DNA of 64,000 bases from NCBI GenBank assembly GCA_944392815.1, contig CALXXY010000003.1:20096-84095 (forward strand), read 5' to 3'. The notes under the pieces are model-generated. The model saw only the letters and a list, made by a program, of their open reading frames with translations, did no database searches and was not told the DNA's origin. Source of the stretch: an uncultured Alphaproteobacteria bacterium. Its GTDB lineage: Bacteria > Pseudomonadota > Alphaproteobacteria > Rs-D84. The number at the start of each line of letters is the position of its first letter. Within the stretch, counting starts at the first letter, position 1. Positions 32,200-63,861 of this stretch are shown here, piece by piece. Both the position numbers and the translations under genes were made by a program.

Positions 32200-32249
32200 A
32201 ATGCCTGCGAATGTTTTAAGATTTATCAGAGAGAAAAAAGGCGTTGACT

Positions 32250-33173
32250 ATGGCAAGATTTATTTTAACAACGGTTTTTGCCGGACTGGTTGCGTTTTCG
32301 GCGTACGCCGCAACCCAGGATATTGTTTACGATAATTTCCAAACAATATATACGGAAACACCTGTTCAATCGTATTACGCGTATCCAGACGATCCGAATT
32401 TTATTCCGGAAACTGAATTCATGAACCGCGCCGACAGTTTGGATTACGATTTGAATATAGAGGCCGCCCGCCAAAGCGAATCCATGGCACACCCGGGTGT
32501 TATGTTTGCCGATCGTCCGATGGTTATATGCCGCAATTTTGGTTGTACACGCCTGAACGACCGCATAACGCGCACATTTTTATTCAACAGTTTGGCAAAT
32601 ATGTTCATGATGAACACGCATTCGCGCCTGTATATATGCGAGGCCGACCCGTTTTCACGTGACTGCCTGCAATCCGGCATTTCATTCCCAGTTCGCAGTG
32701 GTATTGCCAACGCATTGGTCAAAATACCCAAGGCCACAATTTCCCAGGTCAACATTTCAACCGGCCTGTCACGCGCCACGGTCAGCATGACATACGAATT
32801 TCTGGTCAACGGCATTGCCCGCACATGCGAACCAACCATTATGGACATCGTAATCCCCGTCAATTCCCAGGCCACATTATCCAATCGCGAATTCGCATGC
32901 AATATGACCAGTGACGGATTAAGCAACGTATCACTGCTGGTAAATATCGATTACATAGATTTGGATTACGGCATTTTGGGCGGTTATTATTCATTGGGCA
33001 TGCAGGGTCCAACCACGGGCGGCGGCACAGGTTATGCACTGTTCAAAACAGAATTCACCACTGGCGGCATGCAATTCCGCGCAGCCGTCACAGGCGAAGA
33101 AGACATTGCCGGCACAAATTCTGCCATGACTATCCAGCCCGGCGAATATGCAGTGGAACCATTGAAAAAATAA
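32250..33173 (+). CDS. Secreted hypothetical protein
   Basis: Signal peptide MARFILTTVFAGLVAFSAYA. No recognisable domain. Confidence 0.45.
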   Translation: MARFILTTVFAGLVAFSAYAATQDIVYDNFQTIYTETPVQSYYAYPDDPNFIPETEFMNRADSLDYDLNIEAARQSESMAHPGVMFADRPMVICRNFGCTRLNDRITRTFLFNSLANMFMMNTHSRLYICEADPFSRDCLQSGISFPVRSGIANALVKIPKATISQVNISTGLSRATVSMTYEFLVNGIARTCEPTIMDIVIPVNSQATLSNREFACNMTSDGLSNVSLLVNIDYIDLDYGILGGYYSLGMQGPTTGGGTGYALFKTEFTTGGMQFRAAVTGEEDIAGTNSAMTIQPGEYAVEPLKK

Positions 33174-36873: not shown

Positions 36874-36964
36874 ATGTGAAAAACAACTATTGCATAATAT
36901 TGTAATTTCAGGTATAATTGCACAGACAAGATCGTAACAAGTCAATTGCCACAGGGGGGACGGA

Positions 36965-37189
36965 ATGTCGCATTGGGTAAAAACAATTGTTGCCACATTC
37001 GCTATTTTTCAACTGACGCCATTATTTGCGGCAGAAACGCAGCAAATTGCATCGGTTTCATATGTTAACAAAATAACAGATGAATTGGATACCAAGGTTG
37101 ATATGGGATCAGCCCAAACAATATCCGGGGAAAAAACTTTTTCAGCCAGTCCGTTGGTTCCAACTCCACCATTACCACAGGATTTATAG
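36965..37189 (+). CDS. Small secreted hypothetical protein
   Basis: Signal-like N-terminus MSHWVKTIVATFAIFQLTPLFAA. Stop abuts the next gene start. Confidence 0.35.
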   Translation: MSHWVKTIVATFAIFQLTPLFAAETQQIASVSYVNKITDELDTKVDMGSAQTISGEKTFSASPLVPTPPLPQDL

Positions 37190-38994
37190 TGTTCAAAAAA
37201 ATCTGTGCCGCCATACTTGCAATATTTTTAATACTGCCAAATGTTGCAATCTCGGCGGAAATGGTAAATGTTGAATACGTTCACAATATCCTGCGTTGGC
37301 GCTGGGGAATTGATTTACCATATAATACAAACCTGACAAATCCTCATGTCGCTGCAAATATGAAATATTTGTTAACGGTTGTTGATATTGCAAACAAGCG
37401 ACTGAATGGTAAACAAACAACAGATTATGGCAACAGCGACTACGCCACACTGGCGGCGGCGGACACAGTTGCCACGAACACAGCGATTGACACATTGGTT
37501 CGTGGGCCTGGATTTTATTTGACGACCACTCCAGATACGACGAATTTTTCAATTACTATTACCGCCGCTGGAACTTTTGCAATTGATTGGGGTGACGGGG
37601 AACGCGAATCCATTGTCGATAAACCAGTTGCCGCAACAACATACTCTCACACATTTAAAACCCCGCAATCACACACAATTCGCATAACTGGCACCGCCAC
37701 AGATTACAGCGATGCCAACAACGTCAAAACATTATCTTTTAATAACAACACTGCTATTGCCAGAATTAATGGCAACCTGGGTTCTATATTTCCAACACTA
37801 TCGGACGGGACAAATCCGCGTTTTACCGAATTGTTTAACGACGCGACCAATTTGACGGGCGAAATTCCATCAGATTTATTCGACGGCATTACCGGTGCAG
37901 CAACGACATATATGTTCGGCAGCTTGTTTCGCAATTGCTCGAAATTAACGGGCGAAATTCCCGCCGATTTGTTTGCGGGCATCACAGGCCCATTGGCCCA
38001 AGGTACATTCGAAGCATCTTTTTATAGTTGCAGTGGACTGTCCGGCAGTATTCCTGGCGAATTATTTTCACGCATAACCAGCGACACACATGAAGTTTTA
38101 TTTAATCAAACCTTTCGCGGTTGCACTGGATTATCTGGTTCAATTCCCGGTGATTTATTCCAGGGTATCCGTGGCACGCCACGACGTGCAATGTTTTTTG
38201 CCGCATTCCGTAACTGCAGCAACATAACGGGTTCAATCCCAGGCGAATTATTTGCCGGCATCCAGGGCGCGCCAGCAACTTCTGTATTTGCCGAAACATT
38301 TGCATACACGGGACTAACTGGTTCTATTCCCGGCGAACTGTTCTCGGGCATCCAGGGAGCACCAGCCCATCAATTATTCAGCTATACATTTGCTGGTAAT
38401 CGCAGATTAACCGGTCAAATTCCAGGTGAATTATTTGCAGGCCTCCAGGGTGCACCAGCCCCATATGTATTCTCGAATACTTTTGTTCAATGCAGCGGCC
38501 TTGATAATCATATCCCAGCCGACCTGTTTGCGGGCATTCGTGGACAACCAGCCGAAGGAATGTTTGAGAGAACATTCAATGATGCCGGTGTAAGTTCAAT
38601 ACCCGATGGCTTGTTTGCTGACATCCAGGGTGAACCCGCGAACTTTATGTTTGAATCAACTTTTAACTGGAACCCAAGGTTAAACACAATTCCAGATGGT
38701 TTATTTGCTGGAATTTCTGGATCTCCGGCAACAAACATGTTTAGCAATACGTTTAATTATACGAGTATAACAAATATCCCAGACAATTTGTTCGGCACAT
38801 TCACAGATAACCCAGCGAATGGTATGTTTACCAGCACATTCGCCAATTGTCAAAACCTGACGGGACCATCTGCCAAAAATGGCGACGGCCGCTATCTGTA
38901 CGAGGTATTCACAAACATCACATCTGATATGAACACATACGCAAATTCACCAAATTTGTCGGATTACGACCAAATTCCAAACAACTGGAAATAA
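37189..38994 (+). CDS. Secreted protein with about 13 tandem 31-aa LRR-like repeats (C.SxLTGxIPxxLFxGIxGxPA)
   Basis: Signal peptide MFKKICAAILAIFLILPNVAISA. Repeats are evident at both protein and DNA level (they produce spurious minus-strand ORFs). Confidence 0.6.
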   Translation: MFKKICAAILAIFLILPNVAISAEMVNVEYVHNILRWRWGIDLPYNTNLTNPHVAANMKYLLTVVDIANKRLNGKQTTDYGNSDYATLAAADTVATNTAIDTLVRGPGFYLTTTPDTTNFSITITAAGTFAIDWGDGERESIVDKPVAATTYSHTFKTPQSHTIRITGTATDYSDANNVKTLSFNNNTAIARINGNLGSIFPTLSDGTNPRFTELFNDATNLTGEIPSDLFDGITGAATTYMFGSLFRNCSKLTGEIPADLFAGITGPLAQGTFEASFYSCSGLSGSIPGELFSRITSDTHEVLFNQTFRGCTGLSGSIPGDLFQGIRGTPRRAMFFAAFRNCSNITGSIPGELFAGIQGAPATSVFAETFAYTGLTGSIPGELFSGIQGAPAHQLFSYTFAGNRRLTGQIPGELFAGLQGAPAPYVFSNTFVQCSGLDNHIPADLFAGIRGQPAEGMFERTFNDAGVSSIPDGLFADIQGEPANFMFESTFNWNPRLNTIPDGLFAGISGSPATNMFSNTFNYTSITNIPDNLFGTFTDNPANGMFTSTFANCQNLTGPSAKNGDGRYLYEVFTNITSDMNTYANSPNLSDYDQIPNNWK

Positions 38995-48708: not shown

Positions 48709-51075
48709 TTATATCAATGGCGGGAAACAATCGCCCCCTGATTGTGGGCAACAATTAAATCCCATGTCGCCCATATCTGTATAAATCTCGCCTGGGCAAC
48801 AGCCATTCACATCGGGCGCACTGCCGTCTGGACACGCCGGCAAATTTGATGGAACTTCTTCCTGCCACACAACGGACGTCACCGATTGCGGCACGTATTC
48901 ATCATTGGTCGCAACTGCGCCACCGCCAACATTCGTGGTCGCACCCGCCGTCACCACAGACGGCCCAGTCGTATCCACAGCCACCATATTTTCATTACGC
49001 AACGTTTCCGTATCGTAATTCGAATCGGCAACGAACATATTTTCATTCTGTGATACGTTGTACGCGGGCTTGCTGGCCAAAATATCCTCTTCGGATTCCA
49101 CAACAACTGATTCGGGTTCGCTGACCGGCACAGGCGGTGTCACATTCACCGATTCGATAACAACATCAGCGTCCTGGACAGGTTGCGGTTCCAACACAAC
49201 CGTTTCCGGTTCGGGCTGCGCCACAGGTTCCGGTTCACTGACCGGCACAGGCACAGGTTCTGGTTCGGGCTGTGCCACAGGTTCCGGCTCGTCTACAACG
49301 GGCGCCGGCACTTCGACAACAGCGGGCTCGACCACCGGGGCGGGCGTTTCAATTTCAGGTATAAACGGACTGTCGGCCGCATCACCGCTTTCATCAGTCG
49401 CGACATCAGCCACCTGGGCTGTTGGCACCGTTGTGGTTAAATCGGGCACCTGGTCATTGGTATTACGCTGATACAGCCACAATGTAAATATCGACAACCC
49501 GATCAATAATATCAACAACAGATAATACACAAACGTCGGCTTGCGCGGGGCAGGATTTGTCGGCGCAGCGGTCCCCGTTATTGGCGACACAGGGCGGGGT
49601 GCATTCGCACCGGCGGGTGCATTTACCGCCGGTGACACCGGTCGCGCCGCGGCACTGGCCGCTGGGGCGGGTGTCGGCATCGGATTTTGCATTCCCGCAT
49701 TATTCCCGGGCGCCGCCACACTATCGTCCGCAACCGGCGGCACCGGGGCGGGACGTACAGGTTGTGCGGGTTGAACTGGCTGTACAGGTTCAGTCGTATT
49801 CGCCCCCATTAATTCAGAATCCAATTGAACATTTGAATCCACATCATTCGGCTGGGGAATATCAACCGACGTAATCGTATCCAACACAGGCGCAGATTGT
49901 GGCACAGTGGGCGCAACATCGTCGTTCGTCACAGGCGTCACATTTATTGGTGCACTATCCCCAACCGGGGCGGGCGCCGCCGCGGGTTCAGATTGCGTTG
50001 GTGGCGTAAACGACAACGGTTTTTCATCAATCACACTGTCATACAAATCATCAGTCGACTGACCAGAATTTTCCACAGGACTGGACACACCGAATTCAAT
50101 CGGTTTAAACGCGATATCTTCGTCCATTATATCTGGATTTTTGTCGAACAAAGGTTGTACTTCGTCATTTTTCATTGTTTCGTCGGCCATATTTTCCGCC
50201 TTTGGTTCTGCTGTATTAAATTCAATTTCTTTGTCATATGTTATATCAGCGACGTCATTGTCATCATCAACATCGTCCACGTCATCATCATACGAAATAT
50301 TATACGACGTCACCACAGGTGCGTCCACAGATTCCGCCGGCATAACAACATTTTTCGCCGGCGCCACATTTGCGACCATGGTCGCGTCACTGGTTGCGGG
50401 GCGGGCCAAAATCTCGCGCGCGGCGGCGGCATCTTCATCAGCCACTATCAAACGCCGTTGTGCATTGGATAAACGTTTTTTCGCGCGACGCAATTTTTCA
50501 TTTGTCGCATCAATTTGTGCATCTGTCCGTAAAATTTTCGACGCAGATTGTTTTGTCGGCTCGCGCCCAACTTTCTTTTTTTGCTGTGATAACTGTGCCC
50601 GCAAAGAACGCAATTTGACCTGTAATTCATCGATAGTTTCACGCGCACGGGTAATGGTTTCGCGCGCCCGGTCAGCATTCGATTCCGCCATAGCCAACCG
50701 TTCAGCCGCAGCGCGCCGGACTGAATCCTCGCGAAAATGGGTTAATGCAACCAGCGCATCGGACAAATCAGCCCCATTTTCATACGCACGAATTAAATCG
50801 TCGTATTCCGACAGCCCGCTGTATTCAATATCCAACTTTTGATATTTATTATTTTTCTTTGGCCGCACAGTTTCCAAATCAACCCCATAATCATTGGCCA
50901 AAATATCGTCCCATTTGCGATCACCCACGGGATTAATCACCAACAACGCGTTAGGTTTGCGATTATCAACGGTATTATCCAACACGAACACCAATTTACC
51001 GTCCGCGTCATAATACGCCCGCAGCGCATTTCCGCCGATATTATATTCCCTGAATGTTAAAACAGAATTATCCAT
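48709..51075 (-). CDS. Large Pro/Glu/Val-rich membrane protein (unknown function)
   Basis: 788 aa: N-terminal globular and coiled-coil region, acidic stretch, one TM helix (FVYYLLLILLIGLSIFTLWLY), PEPV-type repeats, and a C-terminal Cys cluster (NGCCPGEIY...FNCCPQSGGDC). Confidence 0.5.
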   Translation of the reverse strand: MDNSVLTFREYNIGGNALRAYYDADGKLVFVLDNTVDNRKPNALLVINPVGDRKWDDILANDYGVDLETVRPKKNNKYQKLDIEYSGLSEYDDLIRAYENGADLSDALVALTHFREDSVRRAAAERLAMAESNADRARETITRARETIDELQVKLRSLRAQLSQQKKKVGREPTKQSASKILRTDAQIDATNEKLRRAKKRLSNAQRRLIVADEDAAAAREILARPATSDATMVANVAPAKNVVMPAESVDAPVVTSYNISYDDDVDDVDDDNDVADITYDKEIEFNTAEPKAENMADETMKNDEVQPLFDKNPDIMDEDIAFKPIEFGVSSPVENSGQSTDDLYDSVIDEKPLSFTPPTQSEPAAAPAPVGDSAPINVTPVTNDDVAPTVPQSAPVLDTITSVDIPQPNDVDSNVQLDSELMGANTTEPVQPVQPAQPVRPAPVPPVADDSVAAPGNNAGMQNPMPTPAPAASAAARPVSPAVNAPAGANAPRPVSPITGTAAPTNPAPRKPTFVYYLLLILLIGLSIFTLWLYQRNTNDQVPDLTTTVPTAQVADVATDESGDAADSPFIPEIETPAPVVEPAVVEVPAPVVDEPEPVAQPEPEPVPVPVSEPEPVAQPEPETVVLEPQPVQDADVVIESVNVTPPVPVSEPESVVVESEEDILASKPAYNVSQNENMFVADSNYDTETLRNENMVAVDTTGPSVVTAGATTNVGGGAVATNDEYVPQSVTSVVWQEEVPSNLPACPDGSAPDVNGCCPGEIYTDMGDMGFNCCPQSGGDCFPPLI

Positions 51076-51105: not shown

Positions 51106-51657
51106 CTATTTTTTCTTTGGCGGTGTAAATTGATATGCCTGCTTGCAGTGCTCATAACAATACGGTTTGCCAACAAACACAGGTGCGCCACAGAAATGGA
51201 ACCCCTCGGAATCAGGGTCACCAATTGGCCACCGGCATTGATTTGGTTTCAAATTCGCCAATTCCAACGCATGCTGTACAATACGCTGATGCATGGCCAA
51301 ATTTTTATTCAAAGATTTCCCACCACGTGCGGTCGTCGTGGTCGTGGTTGCCTTTTTTGCGCCACCAGCCACAGTTTTCCCGCCGCGGGTCGCTGTACGT
51401 GTCGCAGTGGCACGCCTGGCCGTGGTGGTTGATTTTTTCACAGTCACCTTGGGCGCAGTTTTTTTTGCGGGTTCCTTTTTCTTGGCCGTGGCACCGGCAA
51501 CCCCGCCGGCCTTGGAATTCCAGCCCAGTCGATTTAATTTGCCAACAACGGCGTTTTTACTCATGCCCAAACGTTTGCCGATTTCGGCGGTGGACAAACC
51601 CTTGCCCGTCAGGGCTTTTAATTTTTTCAGTGTGGCGTTATCCCAACCTTTACTCAT
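51106..51657 (-). CDS. gcrA: Cell-cycle transcriptional regulator GcrA
   Basis: N-terminal W..[ED]....L..L...G.S...I...LG domain. C-terminal CRWPIGDP ... FCGA ... YC..H motif characteristic of GcrA. Confidence 0.8.
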   Translation of the reverse strand: MSKGWDNATLKKLKALTGKGLSTAEIGKRLGMSKNAVVGKLNRLGWNSKAGGVAGATAKKKEPAKKTAPKVTVKKSTTTARRATATRTATRGGKTVAGGAKKATTTTTTARGGKSLNKNLAMHQRIVQHALELANLKPNQCRWPIGDPDSEGFHFCGAPVFVGKPYCYEHCKQAYQFTPPKKK

Positions 51658-51730
51658 TTTAAAAAATCCTTGTTATACATATCGGTATAATTGTAGCATA
51701 GTTTCGAATCGAAAGGCAAGGGGGAAAAAT

Positions 51731-52189
51731 ATGTTTTATTATATCTTTTTTATTATTTTGTTGGCGGGTGCCGCCGCATGTGCATGGGGTATTTCGCGCG
51801 CAGATTTCCGTCGGCGTATTATCCCGGACGCATACCTGTTTCCACTGTTGCTGATTGGATTGGTCGTCACCCAGTTTTTCCCATGGCCCGTCACCCCATC
51901 AGACGGCGCAATTGCGGCCGTGGCCGGATATACATTAACATCATTAATCGGATTAATATTTGAAAAATTCCAACCCAGCCAAACACCCCCCATCGGCATG
52001 GGCGATATAAAATTGATTTCAGTGGCCGGCATTTGGCTGGGGTCAGTTGGATTGGCGGGCGCATTGGCATTGGCGTGCATATCGGGCATGATTTGGGGCG
52101 CAACAAAAAAACAAAAATACATTCCATTTGGACCGTTTCTGATAATCGGTGGAATTTTATCTTTAATTACAATAACGTTTTTGATATAA
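51731..52189 (+). CDS. Type IV prepilin peptidase family protein (A24, short CpaA-like)
   Basis: Two catalytic Asp motifs (RRIIPD and GMGDIKL), 4-5 TM helices. The longer annotated ORF from 51293 is antisense to gcrA and rejected. Confidence 0.65.
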   Translation: MFYYIFFIILLAGAAACAWGISRADFRRRIIPDAYLFPLLLIGLVVTQFFPWPVTPSDGAIAAVAGYTLTSLIGLIFEKFQPSQTPPIGMGDIKLISVAGIWLGSVGLAGALALACISGMIWGATKKQKYIPFGPFLIIGGILSLITITFLI

Positions 52190-52215
52190 TATAAAAATAA
52201 ACGGGAACCCGAGAG

Positions 52216-53097
52216 ATGAAATCATACACTATATCAGCACTGTCAGCATTTTTGTTGCTGTTGACCACACCGGCCATGGCGACAACTTTTCCAACGCCCA
52301 CAACGCCATTTTCGCAATACGGTCAAATTCAAAATGTGCAAAATTATTCGTCCAATCCATTTTGGGACCCCAGTTCACCGTATAATCAACGCATGCCTGT
52401 GCCGGTATACGTGACGGGCACAGACGTTGACACAGCCGATTGTACCACGGTGGTTGGCGCACTGGTTGCATCATTTTGCGCAACACGTAATAATTGCGTG
52501 GGAATGGATGTAAACGACGCCCGCCCAACAATCACTGTCCAATTGGCCAGTTTGCCCAACCACAACTATGTGACGCCGTGCGCGGGCTATATCGACAGCG
52601 AATTTGATAAATACGTATCACAAAACGCGGTTGCCGCCCCAACGGGGAAAACAGTGGCATTTCCAACCGCAACCACGGCAAACCCGACGGTAAATCAGCA
52701 AAACTATCAATTTACAAATCCATATGATCCAAAACCCGCCGATTGGCAAATTGACATGATGGAACGCAAAAACGAATTGCAGAATTTGCAATCGGCAAAT
52801 ACAGCGGGTACATCGCAATTGGCACGCGCCAGTTTCCCAACCACCGCGGCCGATTTATCGTTTACCGAACGCATTCAAAATGATGCGGCTGGATACGCCC
52901 CATACGCCGGCAAATCTGCATACGAACCATTAAACATAGAAAGCGAGGAAAAATATCGCCAACGCACGAACGCATATTGCAATTCCAAAATGGCGACATT
53001 ACGCACAATCGACGCAGATTTACAAACCATATCAGATTGCAGAACGTCCGGCACACCATTCAACGATTGTGTTAAAAAATTACAGGGGATATATTAA
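52216..53097 (+). CDS. Secreted hypothetical protein
   Basis: Signal peptide MKSYTISALSAFLLLLTTPAMA. Thr/Pro/Asn-rich with several Cys. Confidence 0.45.
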   Translation: MKSYTISALSAFLLLLTTPAMATTFPTPTTPFSQYGQIQNVQNYSSNPFWDPSSPYNQRMPVPVYVTGTDVDTADCTTVVGALVASFCATRNNCVGMDVNDARPTITVQLASLPNHNYVTPCAGYIDSEFDKYVSQNAVAAPTGKTVAFPTATTANPTVNQQNYQFTNPYDPKPADWQIDMMERKNELQNLQSANTAGTSQLARASFPTTAADLSFTERIQNDAAGYAPYAGKSAYEPLNIESEEKYRQRTNAYCNSKMATLRTIDADLQTISDCRTSGTPFNDCVKKLQGIY

Positions 53098-53100
53098 AAC

Positions 53101-54267
53101 ATGTTTTTACGACCAATCGTATTTTCTGTATTGTGCACATTCATCGGCATACACGGTGCGAATGCCCTGATGTGGAATGATCCGAATGTAAACCTTGTCC
53201 AAAGCGTATCTGATCACCGTTATCGTGACGCCAACACGGGTCGATATGTAAGTACCGCCGGAATGCCAGCGGTACCGCCAGTGGTCGGCAGCCCAACTGG
53301 TACTGGTACAGGCACCGGAACCGGTACTGGTACAGGAACTGGAACAGGTACGGGAACCGGTACTGGTACAGGCGCTGGAACAGGTACGGGAACTGGAACC
53401 GGTACTGGTACAGGCGCTGGGGCTGGTGGCGGTGGCACCGCCGGCAGAATTCGCACCAATTGGTCAAATATGTCACGTGGCGCACGTATCGGCACTGGGA
53501 TTGGTATCGTCGCTGGTACAGCGGGTGTTGTGACATCTGGCCTGGGGAACCAGGAACACGGTGCCGGCAACGTGGTTGGTGGCGCATTAAGTGGTGCCGC
53601 AGCGGGCGCCTCTGTTGGCAGTTTAATCGCCCCAGGTCTGGGTACTGCTATCGGTGCAGGTGTTGGCGCATTGGCCGGTGCATTGTACCCTGCGGCAAAG
53701 GTATTTTCCGAAACAGATTGCCTGCGCGATCCTGTCACCGGGGCATACACATGTTGCAATACCGCATTTAACAAAGGCGACCGCGTCGTTCCAATTGGCG
53801 GATTCATGTTCTGTGGCGCCGAAGATGGCTCGCAAAACACACCGTTCCAGGTACGTCAATGTCTGCAGGGCAAACCAAAGGACGAATCAACCTGGACCGA
53901 CCAGGGTAAAAAATGGTACGAAGGCGGCATGTGGGTTGATGATTTTTGGGCACCTGAATGCACGGTCAGATTTTGCAACACCGCCCCAACCCAGGGCATA
54001 GAAAATTATATTATACCGGTCCAGGACACAACAAATTTCTGTTGGGATTGGAAATGTATTGATGGATACGAACGTTCCGGGGACACATGTGTCATCGCGG
54101 GCGGTGGCGGCAACGGAACGACGGGTGGCGCACCGGTCACACCATATACAAATCCGACAAACCCGACCGCCGATCAATACGATGAATTAATCAAACGACT
54201 GCAATTGCAACGCCAATTAATATTGCAGGAATGCGGTTATATGGTGAACACACAAAACCAAAATTAA
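53101..54267 (+). CDS. Secreted protein with (Thr-Gly)n dipeptide repeat, glycine-zipper segment and Cys-rich C-terminal domain
   Basis: Signal peptide. About 22 TG/AG dipeptides encoded by an imperfect GGTACN 6-bp tandem repeat (53299-53435). Confidence 0.45.
   Translation: MFLRPIVFSVLCTFIGIHGANALMWNDPNVNLVQSVSDHRYRDANTGRYVSTAGMPAVPPVVGSPTGTGTGTGTGTGTGTGTGTGTGTGTGAGTGTGTGTGTGTGAGAGGGGTAGRIRTNWSNMSRGARIGTGIGIVAGTAGVVTSGLGNQEHGAGNVVGGALSGAAAGASVGSLIAPGLGTAIGAGVGALAGALYPAAKVFSETDCLRDPVTGAYTCCNTAFNKGDRVVPIGGFMFCGAEDGSQNTPFQVRQCLQGKPKDESTWTDQGKKWYEGGMWVDDFWAPECTVRFCNTAPTQGIENYIIPVQDTTNFCWDWKCIDGYERSGDTCVIAGGGGNGTTGGAPVTPYTNPTNPTADQYDELIKRLQLQRQLILQECGYMVNTQNQN
53299..53435 (+). repeat. Imperfect hexanucleotide tandem repeat (GGTACN, about 22 units) inside a CDS
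   Basis: ggtactggtacaggcaccggaaccggtactggtacaggaactggaacaggtacg... read directly from the sequence. Confidence 0.85.
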
Positions 54268-56036
54268 TGCGGCGGATATTTATATCTTGGCTGATTGCAC
54301 TTTGCGCCACAAATGTGGCGCTTTGTGCGAATGTGACACAAACAACCGCACCAATATCACTGGTCGGGGGTGGGGCGGGTGACATAACCGTCCCGACAAC
54401 GTCGCCAGATTTTGTCCCAATTTCTGATATAAACCAAATCACACCGAACGATACAGAATGCGCCACTGCCGTATTTGCGGACGCGCTGGCCAACAATTCT
54501 GCGGCTGTATCGGAAACGGACGAAGATATTGTCATACGTCAATGGATTTATCAAACTTTTGCAAATCCTGACGTTCTGCGCGCGGTTATGAAATGTCCCG
54601 AATTCGCAAACGCTGCCGATGACGAAACGATTACACTGCAACCAATAAAATACGTTTTTCCGGGCGGGCGCGAAATAGTCATCAATTACGAAACCCAACC
54701 AAAAATTTTGGCCCAACGAATAACATTGGGCGAAAAAAATGAATTGGCTGATTTGAATCCGAATCCGCGTATTGACCCGACCGACGGCACGGTTTGGACA
54801 AACACAGATCCTGCATGGTATGCAATCATGGTTGTTGAATCGGGCACGCTGGATGAATTCGTGGGTCCTGGGAAAAATAAGACGGTATCCATGCGATATA
54901 TTAATGACAACATAGACAGGTTATTTCCACATGGCAACCAGTGCACCAGCAAATCCGCACTGGCCGGGGACAGAAGAATGATAAACGTTGCCACCCGCGA
55001 AACAGTTGGCATTGATAACGATACAAATGATTACTATGTGGCGGGCGACGTAAGTTTGCAATGGATATCTTATCTGGAAATCGGTCTGGACGTGGCAATA
55101 ACAGTTTTAACGATGGGCGGCGGCACAGTTATTTTGGGCGCAACAAAATCCGCCCGCGCGTCCCGTGCATTGCACGGATTAACAAACACAATCAAAACAT
55201 TGCGCACGACAGATTCCGTACGCGATTACGTGCGCATATCGCAACAATATACGCGCGTGGCCGAACAATTGCGCAACATTGACCGCGTCGCCGACGCCGC
55301 GCAATACGAACGCCTCGCCGCCCAGGCCGATGATTTGGCGCGCACTATGCGCACACTGGAACAAACAGACGACAACGTTCGGCAATATCGCAATGCCACA
55401 AACGCATTCACATCACTGAATCAATACCGCCGCACTTTGCGCAGTTTACGCACCCCACAACGTGGCAATATCATCGCACGCGCATGGCGCGCAATCCGCG
55501 CGGCAAACACAGGCGGGAAAACCATTCGCAACGCGGAAAAAATCGCCCGCAGCAGCACACTGTCCGGCCAAATTCGCGATTGGTTGTTTCAATCAACATT
55601 AACAAATGCCGGGGCATTGGCGCGCCTGGAACGCACGGGCGGATACATATACGGCGCATTGCGTTTTTTCGGTGGCATGTATGATTGGACGGAAACCAGC
55701 ACCGGCGAATTCACCAGTGGCATTGATTTCAAACCATTGACACTGCTGTCGGCCGACGATTTACAGGGCCAGGAAAATGTCATAAATCACGGCATGTGGC
55801 TGATGTGGGCGGGCAATGCATATTCCGCCGCAGACGATGACGCCGCATATCTGCAGGCCATGGATTTTGCCAACAAATTCCATTTCAACCTGGACAAAAT
55901 TCAAACGGAACAAAACAATCACGCGTGCAATGTGGATATTTTCGTCGTGCGTCCAATAATCCATAACCCCGGCACAGATAACGCAGAATTATATTACCTG
56001 ATAATGAATGACACCCCGTGGACAACGCGCGAATAA
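54267..56036 (+). CDS. Large secreted hypothetical protein
   Basis: Start at MRRIFISWLIALCATNVALCA (signal peptide). C-terminal half rich in R/A/T heptad-like repeats. No known domain. Confidence 0.45.
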   Translation: MRRIFISWLIALCATNVALCANVTQTTAPISLVGGGAGDITVPTTSPDFVPISDINQITPNDTECATAVFADALANNSAAVSETDEDIVIRQWIYQTFANPDVLRAVMKCPEFANAADDETITLQPIKYVFPGGREIVINYETQPKILAQRITLGEKNELADLNPNPRIDPTDGTVWTNTDPAWYAIMVVESGTLDEFVGPGKNKTVSMRYINDNIDRLFPHGNQCTSKSALAGDRRMINVATRETVGIDNDTNDYYVAGDVSLQWISYLEIGLDVAITVLTMGGGTVILGATKSARASRALHGLTNTIKTLRTTDSVRDYVRISQQYTRVAEQLRNIDRVADAAQYERLAAQADDLARTMRTLEQTDDNVRQYRNATNAFTSLNQYRRTLRSLRTPQRGNIIARAWRAIRAANTGGKTIRNAEKIARSSTLSGQIRDWLFQSTLTNAGALARLERTGGYIYGALRFFGGMYDWTETSTGEFTSGIDFKPLTLLSADDLQGQENVINHGMWLMWAGNAYSAADDDAAYLQAMDFANKFHFNLDKIQTEQNNHACNVDIFVVRPIIHNPGTDNAELYYLIMNDTPWTTRE

Positions 56037-57613: not shown

Positions 57614-57700
57614 TGGTGGGGATAGTGGGACTCGAACCCACACGGTCGCAATGACCAAAGGATTTTAAGTCCTCAGCGTCTACCATTCCGCCATATCCCC
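57614..57700 (-). tRNA. tRNA-Leu (anticodon UAA), type II
   Basis: Reverse complement GGGGATATGGCGGAATGGTAGACGCTGAGGACTTAAAATCCTT...GGTTCGAGTCCCACTATCCCCACCA with a long variable arm. Confidence 0.8.
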
Positions 57701-57728
57701 CATTGCAATTTGAATCGATAAAAAATTT

Positions 57729-57804
57729 TGGTGGAGCTGATGGGACTCAAACCCACGACCTCTACGATGCGAACGTAGCGCTCTATCAACTGAGCTACAA
57801 CCCC
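57729..57804 (-). tRNA. tRNA-Ala (anticodon CGC)
   Basis: G3:U70 pair in the acceptor stem and anticodon loop TTCGCAT. Confidence 0.8.
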
Positions 57805-57811
57805 AGAACTT

Positions 57812-57898
57812 TGGTGCGGATAAGAGGACTTGAACCTCCAAGGCATTGCTGCCACTAGTACCTGAAACTAGCGCGTCTACCAATTCCGCCATATCCGC
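57812..57898 (-). tRNA. tRNA-Leu (anticodon CAG), type II
   Basis: Reverse complement GCGGATATGGCGGAATTGGTAGACGCGCTAGTTTCAGGTACTAGT...GGTTCAAGTCCTCTTATCCGCACCA. Confidence 0.8.
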
Positions 57899-58024: not shown

Positions 58025-60742
58025 ATGAGAAGGATTCTGTATTTTATCACTACTTTTGCCCTGTGCATTGGCATTGCCAACGCGGCTGTGCGTGATGAAA
58101 ATGCAACGAATCGCAATACGAATAATGCCAATCAAACAGTTTCGCGCACGGCGTCCACACGCGCCGTCGCTGGGCGCAGTGCAACTGTGCGCACGGCCAC
58201 GCCAACTGTATCGCGCACAGCATCACAAAATAACGCCACGCGAACCACCGCCGCGCGCCCATCGTCATCGTCAAATCGCCCAAATGCCACGCGCACGTCG
58301 GTGGCCCGCACGGGCAACAACACGACCCGCGCGGCAACTGCGCGCGCCGCAGCGCCGGTTGTATCACGCGCCGCCACAAACACCAGTGCAATGTCCGAAA
58401 CACGCACCGGCGCAGAATACGAGCAATGCAAAAGTGCATATTTTACATGCATGGATCAATTTTGCGAATTAAAAAACGACGACTATCGTCGCTGTTCTTG
58501 CAGTAATCGCGTGTTTGATTTAACCGAAATCCGCGACACCATGCAGGACGCCAGCGACCAATTAACCGTATTCAATGAAAATCTGAACGTTGTCGGCATG
58601 ACCGCGGCCCAGGCAACCGCCATGAAAACCGCGACCGAGGGCGAAAATGCCCTGACGTCGGACACATCTGCGTCAAAACAATTATTACAGGCCATCATGA
58701 ATTCAATACGCGGTGGCGACACGTCTGTTGGTGGCAAATATTCCGATTTGAACAGCATAACATTATCGTTTGACACAGTAAACGCGTTTGGCACTGCGGA
58801 CGCGGGTCAAATCATCGCGTCATACAACGGCCAAAATCTGTACGACGCCGTATACCCCCAATGTCGCGAGGCCGTACGCGCCGACTGTACCGACGCACAA
58901 TTACAGCGCGCAATCACCGCATATTTAATGGCAATTGAACAGGACTGCAACAGTGTCGAAACAGCAATAGAAAACAAGCAAAAGGAAATAAAATCTGCTA
59001 TCCGCGAAAGCAGCGCTATGTTGGATTTGGCCCGCGTAGAAAATCGCCAGGCGCACAATTCCAGCGACATGGCAACATGCCTGACCAATGTTGAAAACGC
59101 CATTTTAAGCGAGGAAGTTTGTGGTTCCAATTACCACAAATGCCTGGACAATGGCGAATTTATCGATGTTTCCACAGGCGCCCCAATCGCAGGCGTGGAA
59201 AATTTTTACGAATTGGGAAATCTGCTGAAATTTGCAGACGGTGTTGACGCCGCCGATCAAAAATTATCGCAAATCACATACAACAGGACTTTCGTTAAAA
59301 ATTTTGAAAATCGCGTTAAAAAATTCGCGGAACCAGAATTGGACAAATGTACGGAAATTGCCGACGTTGTTTGGTCGGAATACCTGGACAAAGCCATGCT
59401 GGACATATACTATGCCCAACAATCCAAAGTATCCGAAATCAAACAGGGTTGCTTTGATTTTGTATCTGCCTGCTATATGAACAGCGAGGCCGCCATCACA
59501 GACGCCATGGCATCACTGACCGGCGACGACACGGTTATTTTACAACCGGACAGCGTCACATTAACAACAGAAATGTGCCGTGATTATATTAATTCGTGCA
59601 ACATGATGTTCTATGACCAAACTGGCGGCCAAAACATCGTGACGGACTATATCAACAACCGCCAGGAAACAGACACATTGACCGCATGTCGCGCAGTTGT
59701 AAAACAGTGCTTTGATAACTTTGGCGGATCCGGATATGAAAACTTCTATTATCCATACAGCGGCCTGTTCAAAACGGGCGAGGCCCTGGACTGGTTCACC
59801 CTGTATGAATATGACGAAAATGGCAACCCCAACACGGACAAACCGGTATCAAAATGCGCCCAGCAATTACAGGAAATCGCGTCATGCAATACCCCCGAAA
59901 TGATGGAGAACGCCTTTGGTGGATTCGACCGCATAATCGCCGGCCGCGGGACATTCGGCGACGAAACTGTATTCTATTTTGATAAAAACGGCCAATATAA
60001 TGGCGAACCACTCGAAGATCATGCCAACATAACATACAACCATAAAAAATATGGACTGCTGGACGATGTGGCAACAGAAAACATAACCCCGATAGATATC
60101 GCAACAAACCAGGCCAGCGGTAATAAAATCAATGCGCGCGTGCTGTCGCACCACGAACCACGCCCAACTGGGGTTGCCACCGAAATTTATAACCAGATTG
60201 TCGACACACTGGCCACCCAGTGCACCAACCTGCAGGGCCGTTTTGTTGAACTGCAATTCATCAAACAAGGTTTGTACCAGGAATCCAATCTGTGCCTGTC
60301 CAACTTTGAAGGTTCAATTGAATACGGTGGTAGTGGTGGTAATGGGGCCGGAACAGCCGAAACCCCGAACCTGGTCTATTTGTACGGCATTGGCCAAGGC
60401 GAAGATATGTGCCCGCGGCAATATAATCTGGACGTGGATACCCAATCATGGGGCGCGTGCCTGTGCTGGGAAAATGGCGGTCGACGCAGCAAATGGGGCA
60501 AAAGCCCGAAATGCATCGCCGGTGTTCCGACCAGCACTGCAATGAACGATGCGAAATGCACGTCGTCCACCGTCCCCACATCAACCAGCGCCACCGCGCC
60601 AGAAAACTGGTGCACACTGGATTTAAACTCGTCCCGCCAGGTATGCCCATATGATTCTACCGAAGAAGAGGGCATGTGCAAAACACCTGAAACATCTGCT
60701 GGGGAACTGCTGCTGCATAATCTGCCCGACGCGGTCATATAA
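58025..60742 (+). CDS. Large secreted Cys-rich protein (905 aa) with low-complexity N-terminal region
   Basis: Signal peptide MRRILYFITTFALCIGIANA. About 100 aa of (S/T/A)R-rich low complexity, then a Cys-rich globular region with many N-x-S/T sites. Confidence 0.5.
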   Translation: MRRILYFITTFALCIGIANAAVRDENATNRNTNNANQTVSRTASTRAVAGRSATVRTATPTVSRTASQNNATRTTAARPSSSSNRPNATRTSVARTGNNTTRAATARAAAPVVSRAATNTSAMSETRTGAEYEQCKSAYFTCMDQFCELKNDDYRRCSCSNRVFDLTEIRDTMQDASDQLTVFNENLNVVGMTAAQATAMKTATEGENALTSDTSASKQLLQAIMNSIRGGDTSVGGKYSDLNSITLSFDTVNAFGTADAGQIIASYNGQNLYDAVYPQCREAVRADCTDAQLQRAITAYLMAIEQDCNSVETAIENKQKEIKSAIRESSAMLDLARVENRQAHNSSDMATCLTNVENAILSEEVCGSNYHKCLDNGEFIDVSTGAPIAGVENFYELGNLLKFADGVDAADQKLSQITYNRTFVKNFENRVKKFAEPELDKCTEIADVVWSEYLDKAMLDIYYAQQSKVSEIKQGCFDFVSACYMNSEAAITDAMASLTGDDTVILQPDSVTLTTEMCRDYINSCNMMFYDQTGGQNIVTDYINNRQETDTLTACRAVVKQCFDNFGGSGYENFYYPYSGLFKTGEALDWFTLYEYDENGNPNTDKPVSKCAQQLQEIASCNTPEMMENAFGGFDRIIAGRGTFGDETVFYFDKNGQYNGEPLEDHANITYNHKKYGLLDDVATENITPIDIATNQASGNKINARVLSHHEPRPTGVATEIYNQIVDTLATQCTNLQGRFVELQFIKQGLYQESNLCLSNFEGSIEYGGSGGNGAGTAETPNLVYLYGIGQGEDMCPRQYNLDVDTQSWGACLCWENGGRRSKWGKSPKCIAGVPTSTAMNDAKCTSSTVPTSTSATAPENWCTLDLNSSRQVCPYDSTEEEGMCKTPETSAGELLLHNLPDAVI

Positions 60743-62853: not shown

Positions 62854-63861
62854 TTATAACAGGAATTTCATCTGGCCCCACGCATTGCCACGTGGCAAAG
62901 TTATCCAGTACAAAATCCCCAAACCGCTGACCGCGGGCATAACTGTGATTATCCCGAACAGCCCCAGCATTATCGCAAACATACGTTCACCAACATGTTC
63001 AGGCAACTTTTCCGCATGCCATATGGACATAGCAAACAATATGAAAAACACAAACGTCATGCCCAGGAAAATCACCACGGATTCAGTCAAAACAAACAAC
63101 GCCATACACAGCACTGCTATAAATCGTACCAGCCATTTTAATTTCACATACGCACTGTGCCGAATTGCACCATGTGGCCGCAGATTACGCAACGCAATCG
63201 TCGCCGCAACCGCCGCCGCCATTAAAATCAAAAACAACAAATGCACCGGCGTCAATGCCCCCAATTGACCAAACCGGAAAAATTCCGGCTGCATTAACAT
63301 GGCGACAGTCGTCACCCCCATAACCAGCGCAGTTCCCGCTATGGGTCGCATTTCGCACCGCGCCATACGCCCAACCAGTCCACCAAACAAAAACGCACCG
63401 ATTTGCAACAGTGGTCCCCACCACGCATGAATATCAGACAACCCAATCGCGGCCAAAATCATCACCCAACAAACAACAATTCCCCATTTTTGTCGGCCAC
63501 TGGCACCACGAAACTTTGGCAAATTAAACCCACGCGAATACGACCCGACAAACACAGACGCCACAAAAACTATGGCCGCGATTAAAAACGGCAACACAGT
63601 TGCATTATCACGCAACACGGCATAATTGCCGCCAAACAACACAACCCACGCCAACGTCAGAATCACCGCAGCCAGCGACGTGCGCGACATAATATTTTCT
63701 GAATTCCAGCCAATGCGCTGCAAAAACGCATGCCCACAAAAATACACCATCATAAACACAGGCACCGCCAAAATCGCCCACCACAAAAACGCAGGCGCCG
63801 CCAACGCGGCATTATTAAACGCGCTTATTGCACTTTGCACAATCATACTGCTTTCAAACAT
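62854..63861 (-). CDS. Polytopic inner-membrane protein (unknown), upstream of lpxA
   Basis: About 9 predicted TM helices. No catalytic motif recognised. Confidence 0.4.
   Translation of the reverse strand: MFESSMIVQSAISAFNNAALAAPAFLWWAILAVPVFMMVYFCGHAFLQRIGWNSENIMSRTSLAAVILTLAWVVLFGGNYAVLRDNATVLPFLIAAIVFVASVFVGSYSRGFNLPKFRGASGRQKWGIVVCWVMILAAIGLSDIHAWWGPLLQIGAFLFGGLVGRMARCEMRPIAGTALVMGVTTVAMLMQPEFFRFGQLGALTPVHLLFLILMAAAVAATIALRNLRPHGAIRHSAYVKLKWLVRFIAVLCMALFVLTESVVIFLGMTFVFFILFAMSIWHAEKLPEHVGERMFAIMLGLFGIITVMPAVSGLGILYWITLPRGNAWGQMKFLL

Follow-up and report, generated by a model that had tools for sequence, protein, structure and literature searches.

In a window of 64,000 nucleotides from an uncultured Alphaproteobacteria bacterium, two adjacent genes form a cassette of the reduced-genome Rs-D84 gut Alphaproteobacteria that, on balance, probably encodes a binding device associated with the cell envelope, in which the parts for assembly are conserved and the leucine-rich repeat (LRR) head varies. 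The first gene would supply a Sec-exported homologue of a tail-fibre unit, about 50 residues long and translationally coupled to the second gene, whose product would be a Sec-exported modular binding protein with a PKD-like spacer, an LRR solenoid of 12-13 turns and a cap. The small protein and the N-terminal domain (N-domain) of the large protein would build the complex and keep it attached to the cell envelope. The fast-evolving solenoid, its length varying between paralogues, would act as an outward ligand-binding head that attaches to the surface of a partner or host. We infer that the LRR protein passes the inner membrane, is exposed at the surface and binds a ligand there; the small and large proteins would also interact physically.

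The small ORF (74 aa, ATG start, 36965-37189, + strand) is also called as a gene in public assemblies, and the large ORF (601 aa, 37189-38994, +) follows it directly; an earlier sequence-only reading of this DNA had given the outer limits 36965-38994 exactly. The TAG/ATG overlap described there holds in that the end of the small ORF meets the start of the large one, but the large ORF starts with GTG and the overlap is TAGTG (37187-37191, +), the G of the small-ORF TAG being the first base of the GTG. The same GTG is used in public gene calls, and no in-frame ATG occurs before codon 25, a start at which would lose the signal peptide. This overlap is consistent with translational coupling of the two ORFs. 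Directly 5' of the small-ORF ATG, a G-rich stretch resembling a Shine-Dalgarno sequence was recognised by eye (GGGGGGACGG, 36954-36963, +), as was a candidate promoter of presumed function consisting of TTGCAT, a 17 nt spacer and TATAAT (36890-36918, +). The TATAAT is a perfect -10 hexamer (36913-36918), and because the -35 hexamer TTGCAT matches at only 3 of 6 positions the site is missing from the automatic promoter scan, which listed none 5' of the small ORF. The terminator scan listed none 3' of the large ORF.

The 74-aa ORF is a real, conserved partner gene that is tightly linked to the large ORF. A word-based database search with this ORF alone recovered only its own cluster; its relatives were recovered by tblastn and HMM scans of fetched loci, and by profile search. 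Of 75 family genes, 48 have a small-ORF relative immediately 5' of them, and of 52 small ORFs, 49 stand upstream of a family gene. In an unbiased sample, seven small genes obtained independently and with sequence available on their downstream side, a family gene came next every time. The intergenic gap is between -4 and +30 nt in 46 of the 48 pairs. It was also observed that small-protein subtypes co-vary with N-domain subtypes, tandem cassettes of one genome included. Clustering of the small-protein family gives 455 clusters at 90% identity and 170 representatives at 50%, with residues that are invariant across relatives. Inverted repeats sought as an explanation of the inverted cassette in two loci (L067, L085) amounted only to short, chance-level pairs.

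The family of the large protein is likewise large, and it is restricted to one lineage. Its homologues number more than 800, and not one has a name that indicates a function, the few named ones being annotated as 'hypothetical protein'; a contig search with the single protein gave no relatives, which were found with an alignment query. All named or located sources are metagenome-assembled genomes (MAGs) of uncultured Alphaproteobacteria from animal guts (Candidatus Enterousia, order Rs-D84, with genomes of about 1 Mb). One MAG contributes 13 family loci, the highest number per genome. The cassette is syntenic across species: in one syntenic orthologue (L032) the protein is 47% identical, against 65-93% for the genes flanking the cassette. 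Family alleles are mosaic, the repeat number of single-module homologues ranges from 7 to 22, and among the best 120 matches 49 place two or three sandwich-LRR-cap modules after one N-domain. Literature searches returned no description of the LRR protein family.

On inspection and hydropathy each ORF begins with what looks like a Sec signal peptide, as the sequence-only reading had suspected. Each has a basic start, a hydrophobic core and small residues ahead of a conserved mature start; the 12-residue Kyte-Doolittle means of the cores are 3.34 for the large ORF and 1.7 for the small ORF, and the signal peptides are retained across homologues of both. In the large ORF the peptide MFKKICAAILAIFLILPNVAIS (37189-37257, +) precedes AEM... 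at a putative cleavage site, and the mature start A(E/Q)xVNVxY(I/V)H is kept in all paired homologues. The small ORF has a signal peptide of about aa 1-23 and a mature protein of 51 aa. The presence of lpxB within the window implies an outer membrane.

Behind its signal peptide the large protein has a conserved three-helix N-domain, a PKD-like sandwich, the LRR part and a C-terminal cap, an arrangement present in 89 ORFs. The non-canonical LRR solenoid (37774-38826, +; a degenerate first unit and 11 units of 29-31 aa) reads at the protein level as 11 clear units anchored by IP..LF (aa 212-546), preceded by the degenerate unit (181-211) and followed by a capping pseudo-unit (547-577), about 13 units of 29-31 aa in total. 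Self-identity at an offset of 31 residues is 28%, compared with 10.8 +/- 0.8% in 2000 shuffles (z = 23), which bears out the roughly 13 tandem repeats of about 31 residues reported previously; the consensus given for them, MF..TF..C..LTG.IP..LF.GI.G.PA.. in our alignment, was also essentially right. The variable positions of each repeat fall between the conserved MF and TF dipeptides. Across the family (1521 units) the period is 31 in 536 units, 29 in 359 and 30 in 234. Conservation of the repeats at the DNA level had been overstated, as Tandem Repeats Finder detected no repeats on the DNA and the core segments share a mean nucleotide identity of 55% (maximum 80%). Third-codon positions at identical residues agree in only 37%, and the DNA similarity of the repeats is therefore only what protein conservation imposes.

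Structure modelling, which the sequence-only reading had proposed, predicts the LRR part with confidence as a curved solenoid that superposes on solved LRR structures, so that an LRR solenoid is established as the modelled fold of the repeats. The LRR-like assignment thus stands on the structural side but not on that of the profiles, since a search of the Pfam LRR models, also proposed there, left the window protein with no match: no Pfam family of any kind was found at E <= 1. Low Pfam scores, and nothing else, would favour treating the repeats as a compositional artefact or the small ORF as a chance or decayed reading frame. The probability of this is negligible, and it is already refuted by the strength of the periodicity and the confidently predicted solenoid, as well as by the numbers of large-protein relatives and small-protein clusters, the invariant residues and the fixed gene order.

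LRR superfamily members are built of tandem repeats of 20-30 residues, according to two papers (PMC2946307, PMC5976695), and a period of 29-31 residues is at or slightly above that upper limit of 30. Compared with the core motif LxxLxLxxNxL (L being L/I/V/F and N being N/T/S/C), the window repeats fit at positions 1, 6, 9 and 11, but position 4 is polar or variable and position 2 is an invariant Phe; in the 31-aa units one additional residue stands between positions 9 and 11. They follow the pattern [MLV]F..[TSLA]F..[CNT].(.)L, and with HMMER the family aligns with a designed 24-aa LRR only via a 5-residue gap per repeat. The repeat departs in part from the canonical core motif and is an LRR type of 29-31 residues that current Pfam models miss. 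It is newly added here together with an uncharacterised N-terminal domain.

Of the resemblance to plant-specific and BspA-type LRRs claimed earlier, the LTG.IP..LF part is all that the window repeats have in common with the plant type; neither the 24-residue plant repeat nor the BspA-type LRR_5 profile fits. LRR_5 (PF13306, threshold 27.7 bits) gave weak matches in 6 of 35 homologues, the best at 26.4 bits (P0057). BspA-type repeats, such as those of the Bacteroides ovatus protein BACOVA_04585 (PDB 4fs7), which we take to be a BspA/TpLRR-type (LRR_5) surface protein, have a period of about 23 residues, and that of the window is longer because of an extra G.PA..MF turn. The three-helix N-domain, the C-terminal cap and the small partner gene are features of the cassette that are absent from BspA. 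Plant LRR receptor ectodomains (BRL2, RGFR1, TDR, GSO1, PSKR1) are the closest solved structures to the LRR part, at an identity of only 16-20%. The plant-specific repeat is LxxLxLxxNxL(S/T)GxIPxxLGx, 24 residues with an Asn ladder, whereas the window repeats have 29-31 residues and Cys, Thr or Asn at the ladder position. Plant LRRs belong to membrane kinases, and the LRR protein has neither a transmembrane nor a signalling domain. With no eukaryotic homologue seen, the plant resemblance is therefore most readily explained by convergence among proteins of the LRR fold.

The same structural neighbours, together with the reduced genome and presumed partner dependence, could point to a eukaryote-like LRR effector, delivered by an intracellular bacterium to manipulate a eukaryotic host cell. 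We regard this as quite improbable: no listed homologue is attributed to a eukaryote and the named or located sources are all bacterial MAGs, a Pfam LRR match is absent, and Sec signal peptides on both proteins are a misfit for type III or type IV effectors. Nor are there secretion-system genes nearby, none being found among 40 neighbouring proteins with Pfam and NCBIfam save a prepilin peptidase 12 kb away. The sources of the homologues also tell against the eukaryote-like character that had been suggested. That the bacterium is intracellular, as had been supposed, is not supported by the literature, in which a partner-dependent lifestyle of Rs-D84 is inferred only; Candidatus Enterousia and its order are described as widespread gut bacteria without central metabolism, with genomes of 0.75-1.0 Mb that are without standard transporters (PMC12306168).

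Along the large protein, conservation peaks in the N-domain; the LRR part shows little of it. The N-domain (aa 24-105; 37258-37503, +) is built of three units with a beta-bridge and then a helix in each, and is a candidate anchoring or assembly module. A sequence search of the PDB with the N-domain gave no significant match, and neither did Foldseek against the PDB with a model of the N-domain and sandwich. A weak structure match to SLH domains (PDB 6bt4, 6cwc; 8% identity, not recovered by Foldseek) is a lead only, the N-domain being half the size of an SLH domain and without sequence similarity to it. The idea that the three units are fibre units was dropped for want of sequence support (hhalign of the N-domain with the tail-fibre unit, E 0.097), and hhalign of the small family with the N-domain was not significant (E 0.055 over 10 columns).

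In some diderm bacteria SLH-domain proteins are tethered to peptidoglycan or another periplasmic polymer. The large protein might similarly be a periplasmic envelope protein, tethered to such a polymer by an SLH-like N-domain and with its LRR acting inside the periplasm. This is unlikely in our view, as the SLH match is weak and unconfirmed, Pfam SLH (PF00395) does not match the window protein and no TRAE motif was found on reading the sequence. Up to 13 fast-diverging paralogues in one very small genome, variable repeat numbers and module duplications better fit an exposed, diversifying surface, as in the binding device favoured here, than a housekeeping function in the periplasm.

The sandwich (aa 109-195, including an IDWGDG motif; 37513-37773, +) is predicted to have seven strands with a pLDDT of about 90 or higher. 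Many matches to Pfam PKD and PKD_4 occur in homologues (in P0003, for example, PKD_4 scores 30.6 bits, the cut-off being 27), the window protein itself being below the PKD threshold, and Foldseek pairs the sandwich with the PKD domain 4xed at a probability of 0.85 but an E-value of 0.17. The C-terminal cap (FTSTFANCQNLTGPSAKNGDGRYLYE...SDYDQIPNNWK and the stop codon; 38827-38994, +) is kept across the family, being found in every one of the 89 full-length family ORFs that were scanned at fetched loci, and in multi-module homologues it recurs to close every module. Two annotations were set aside. Pfam LemA on 15 of 35 homologues is an artefact of summed matches to repeats of about 25 aa, with no single stretch passing, and an NCBIfam PamR match (E 0.0065) reached 15 bits against a cut-off of 300.

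The large protein and the Listeria internalins share the same design logic with opposite domain order. Internalins are a large paralogous attachment family with a signal peptide, a capped LRR, an Ig-like domain and a cell-wall anchoring module. Their repeats have 22 residues, their LPXTG or GW anchors serve a Gram-positive wall, and a small partner protein is absent.

On profile comparison, the mature small protein is a homologue of one stem or neck unit from the tail fibres and receptor-binding proteins of phages. It reads IASVSYV, a short helix and then AQTISGEKTFSASPLVPTPPLPQDL, and its C-terminal tail VPTPPLP is invariant. Aligned by hhalign, the small family and the tail-fibre unit match at 97.4% (E 1.1e-11) in 39 columns that cover the mature protein, which pairs end to end with the unit A[ST]T.FV...G.Q.I.G.KTF..SP.VPTP of the TP901-1 BppL type and of tandem BppL_N fibres. 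An exhaustive profile search with the small family found tail fibres at E 1e-9 to 1e-5, and these fibres are themselves Pfam BppL_N (E 1e-18 to 1e-29) and PHROG 'tail fiber protein'. Taken directly, BppL_N (PF18338) scored 13.5 bits against the window small ORF (E 0.055), below its threshold of 25.8 bits; the TP901-1 receptor-binding protein matched the small family weakly, and a PDB sequence search with the small-family profile gave no significant match. Two long matches to the small-ORF profile (P0346, P0365) were judged by inspection to be repeat-driven false positives, with tandem ...VVNISDPTNPTLAGSYNT... repeats that are presumably of the LVIVD type.

In the TP901-1 protein the matching segment comprises a trimeric helix bundle, a linker and the start of the beta-prism neck, and in phage receptor-binding proteins heads are swapped and stems conserved (PMC3893620). 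The conserved small protein and N-domain and the variable LRR part parallel that division. Unlike a phage fibre unit, the small protein is free-standing, about 50 aa long, provided with its own Sec signal peptide and encoded in a housekeeping region, and the LRR 'head' is on a separate chain from it. A bolder form of the binding-device proposal, which we hold to be possible though doubtful, is that a receptor-binding device of phages has been domesticated into a Sec-exported 'fibre' whose LRR heads can be exchanged, with which ultra-small, partner-dependent gut Alphaproteobacteria grasp the cells they inhabit. The small protein might then form a short trimeric stem like the stem or neck of a tail fibre, and the three-unit N-domain a single-chain, pseudo-threefold adaptor docking on it. 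Such a device, if real, would be the cellular equivalent of host recognition by phages, with module swapping as the source of its diversity. The small protein is an instance of one tail-fibre unit of phages that has become a secreted bacterial protein in its own right.

Homology to tail-fibre units, and mosaic alleles of the kind frequent among phage receptor-binding proteins, would also suit the remnant of a prophage, tailocin or contractile-injection system in which a tail-fibre stem and receptor-binding head still serve a virus-like particle. This is very improbable, given that Sec signal peptides on both proteins are at odds with cytoplasmic assembly and that the cassette is syntenic across species and present in many scattered copies per genome. 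It is flanked by argS and rplM, in a housekeeping region where no phage genes were found.

Plant peptide hormones bind LRR receptor kinases. By analogy, the two products might be a peptide and its receptor, the invariant VPTPPLP tail of the small protein binding along the LRR groove, yet a cognate ligand should co-vary with the groove, and here the tail is invariant and the LRR surface the most variable part. The small protein co-varies with the conserved N-domain instead, and the lack of a transmembrane or signalling domain in the LRR protein likewise makes a receptor role improbable.

The cassette defines what may be the main exported protein family of Enterousia and Rs-D84, with hundreds of members. 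Because this family evolves fast, is modular and mosaic and reaches 13 loci in one genome, it gives studies of attachment definite molecules to work on. Spurious antisense ORFs with repeated motifs also occur across the large gene (37193-38747, - strand); they had been called long, but in the ORF listing they measure only 79-119 aa. They mirror the sense-strand repeats, and it is the sense gene alone that makes their counterparts at other loci group together.

The gene pair encodes two products predicted to be secreted, each with its own signal peptide, and joins an LRR-fold head of variable length and sequence to a conserved N-terminal domain. In the ORF listing the small ORF (36965-37189, forward strand) encodes 74 aa and the co-oriented large ORF (37189-38994, forward strand) 601 aa, and the two share one base within the sequence TAGTG. 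A sequence-only reading of this DNA had described a TAG/ATG overlap here; the overlap of stop and start stands, but the start codon of the large ORF is GTG. The earliest in-frame ATG is codon 25, and a start there would lose a well-formed signal peptide; the same two frames are called in public gene annotations. Such an arrangement is consistent with translational coupling of the two genes. A perfect TATAAT with a weak -35 hexamer can be read 47 nt before the small ORF, although the automatic promoter scan did not list this site, and the terminator scan gave nothing downstream of the large ORF.

Housekeeping genes surround the cassette: argS precedes it, and rplM, rpsI and tig follow. Both in the window and in the syntenic orthologous locus L032 it is flanked by argS and rplM and read from the same strand as they are. 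It was also observed between these genes on the opposite strand, as an in-place inversion, in two further loci (L067, 5835-7470; L085, 3501-5408). No convincing flanking inverted repeats that might account for the inversion were found in the window.

Shifted by 31 residues, the large protein is 28% identical to itself, compared with 10.8 +/- 0.8% after shuffling (z = 23), which speaks against the compositional artefact considered as an alternative. About 13 units of 29-31 aa can be counted, as had been claimed from the sequence: 11 clear ones anchored on IP..LF, a degenerate first unit and a capping pseudo-unit. In 120 homologues, 1521 units were spaced by 31, 29 or 30 residues, with the consensus P..LF(A/G)GI.GAPA..MF..TF..CSGLTG.IP. 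The sequence-only reading had also taken the repeats to be conserved at the DNA level, which is an overstatement. No tandem array was found at the DNA level in the window, the unit cores are on average 55% identical in nucleotides, and synonymous positions agree in only 37%; judged from these comparisons, the repeats are old and maintained by selection on the protein, and recent duplication is not the explanation. Spurious minus-strand ORFs are indeed present, but they are not long (79-119 aa only). The proposed comparison of copy number between strains revealed no variation, the listed full-length members of the window's 90%-identity cluster all being 601 aa long.

A Pfam search with the large protein, which had been proposed for the LRR families, returned nothing at E <= 1, and no Pfam domains were found on the repeat part of its relatives. 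The nearest Pfam model is the BspA-type LRR_5, slightly sub-threshold in a few homologues. The family profile matches a designed 24-residue LRR (4psj, E 2.3e-5) in an alignment requiring a 5-residue gap per repeat, so the unit can be described as a typical ..LT.IP..LF.. LRR plus an extra G.PA.. insertion. The window core motif differs at position 4 from LxxLxLxxNxL, the LRR core definition given in PMC2946307. We conclude that the large protein forms an LRR-fold solenoid whose sequence type is undescribed and whose units reach or exceed the usual maximum length. The solenoid is preceded by the signal peptide, the N-domain (aa 24-105) and a beta-sandwich (aa 109-195) carrying an IDWGDG motif, and is followed by a cap with the conserved motif LTGPSA..DG.YLYE....SDY..IP..WK. 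The sandwich looks PKD-like. Homologues exceed the Pfam PKD_4 or PKD thresholds (the window copy being sub-threshold), and Foldseek matched a PKD domain with a probability of 0.85. The database annotation 'LemA' (PF04011) of six homologues (P0018, P0026-P0028, P0031 and P0050) was rejected as an artefact of summed 25-aa repeat matches with no single passing stretch. Another homologue, P0097 (1023 aa), has no N-domain; its sandwich-LRR modules are accompanied by Cys-rich Ephrin_rec_like domains.

The LRR gene has a conserved partner in the small ORF. Searched as a single sequence, the small ORF recovered only its own cluster. In tblastn and HMM scans of 80 fetched loci, 75 family genes had upstream sequence, and 48 of these were directly preceded by a relative, mostly at gaps of -4 to +30 nt; 49 of 52 small ORFs lay directly upstream of a family gene. 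A profile search with the small family gave 455 clusters, nearly all of 61-105 aa. In an unbiased check starting from six small proteins, each of the seven small genes whose downstream sequence was available had a full family gene 4-50 nt further on, some of these loci being tandem cassettes. The consensus after the signal peptide is [IL]AS[TV].YV..A..T[KR]VDTSA.A.QTMAG.YTVSG...VPTPPLP..[ED], with Y, V, Q, G and T-P-.-L-P invariant. Small-protein subtypes pair with N-domain subtypes, including two different cassettes in one genome. Nine loci (L042, L043, L044, L045, L046, L047, L048, L084 and L088) hold two cassettes in tandem, each with its own subtypes of both parts. In Mgla_MAG_35-bin_11, at least 11 of the 13 family loci (which include L004, L007, L009, L011, L014, L015, L017, L018, L025, L062 and L073) have no detectable upstream small ORF, two being not assessable, and L007 has one orphan small ORF; here the small protein may act in trans, or may have diverged past detection.

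When 1.84 billion representatives were searched exhaustively with the profile, 170 matches emerged, in three groups. The majority are small proteins. The second group comprises longer secreted proteins (for example P0287, P0342, P0363, P0374 and P0396; 178-398 aa) in which A[ST]..YV at the N-terminus and ...YTVSG...VPTP.LP..E at the C-terminus are retained on either side of a fibrous or coiled middle, which suggests stems of variable length. The third consists of tail fibres of phages in which 4-7 units of the form G.Q.I.G.KTF..SP.VPTP...D.S.K.A[ST]T.FV..AL stand in tandem, matching Pfam BppL_N (E 1e-18 to 1e-29) and the PHROG "tail fiber protein". The mature small protein of the window is collinear with one such unit, and profile-profile comparison of the small family with the fibre unit gave 97.4% (E 1.1e-11). 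These matches identify the partner as derived from a tail-fibre stem unit; a prophage remnant was considered as a rival reading of the gene pair. The unit also aligns weakly (E 0.02) to residues 25-51 of the TP901-1 receptor-binding protein, which run from the last part of the trimeric helix bundle through the linker into the beginning of the interlaced beta-prism neck; in phages such stems are conserved and heads exchangeable (PMC3893620). No kinship to the N-domain was detectable for either the small family or the fibre unit. When the small-ORF C-terminus (37166-37186) is joined to the mature N-terminus of the large protein (37258 on), PTP-PLPQDL + AEM-VNVEYV, nine residues separate PTP and ..YV, equal to one compared phage fibre unit (PTP-EFADNSDKV-ATTGFV); the agreement may be a trace of a single fibre gene that split in an ancestor, or a coincidence.

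Single-module family members have 7-22 repeats, and in 49 of the 120 top matches the sandwich-LRR-cap module is doubled or tripled behind one N-domain. At L032 the large protein is 47% and the small ORF 45% identical to the window, compared with 65-93% for the flanking argS, histidine kinase, tig and rplM. The N-domain is the best-conserved part, with 71-80% identity where the LRR part has 43-64%. The homologue P0002 (599 aa) and the window protein are 98-100% identical from aa 196 to 601, the LRR and cap, whereas identity is just 46-77% in aa 1-195, which hold the signal peptide, N-domain and sandwich, a contrast suggesting a mosaic allele produced by recombination at the sandwich/LRR border.

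More than 800 relatives of the large protein were found (E-values down to 0), the few named ones all being "hypothetical protein". The genome matches come from MAGs labelled Candidatus Enterousia or "Alphaproteobacteria bacterium", for the most part of animal-gut origin (apparently chicken, ruminants and others), with 13 family loci from one MAG and 5-6 from others. The order Rs-D84 includes Enterousia, with genomes of 0.75-1.0 Mb lacking the TCA cycle, respiration, flagella and standard transporters, for which a partner-dependent lifestyle was inferred (PMC12306168); that paper does not mention the LRR family. The family is expanded in this minimal-genome lineage. The presence of lpxB, gcrA and trcR in the window fits a diderm alphaproteobacterium.

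The conserved parts, the small protein and the N-domain, would most likely form an assembly that keeps the complex on the envelope, and the LRR solenoid would bind a ligand on the surface of a partner or host; a eukaryote-like effector was considered as a rival. In a peptide-receptor pair the small protein would occupy the LRR groove. The tail of the small protein does not vary whereas the groove does, and small-protein subtypes follow those of the N-domain; both points argue for placing it on the N-domain instead. The analysis turned up no route for export across the outer membrane, so that a periplasmic tether, with the LRR protein acting within the periplasm, remains a serious rival to surface binding. 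The sole hint of a route is a type IV prepilin peptidase (Peptidase_A24; 51293-52189, forward strand) 12 kb away, adjoined by three forward-strand ORFs (52216-53097, 53101-54267 and 54231-56036), none of which matched Pfam or NCBIfam significantly; the stretch 51293-56036 may be a pilus or type II secretion locus that escaped recognition, and so a candidate export route.

Neither the fold nor the general logic, an LRR binder that is secreted and belongs to a multigene family, is new. [quoted passage not shown] Other large ORFs without significant family match occur at 6238-8178 (reverse), 48709-51075 (reverse), 58025-60742 (forward), 62854-63861 (reverse) and 32244-33173 (forward). The 646-aa ORF among them is coiled-coil-like with a weak match to the Mycoplasma MG_279/MG_280 family, and one of 788 aa sits in the window's only GC-rich stretch (55%). 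The whole window has seven tRNA genes, and a tight cluster, Leu(taa)-Ala(cgc)-Leu(cag), lies at 57614-57898 on the reverse strand.
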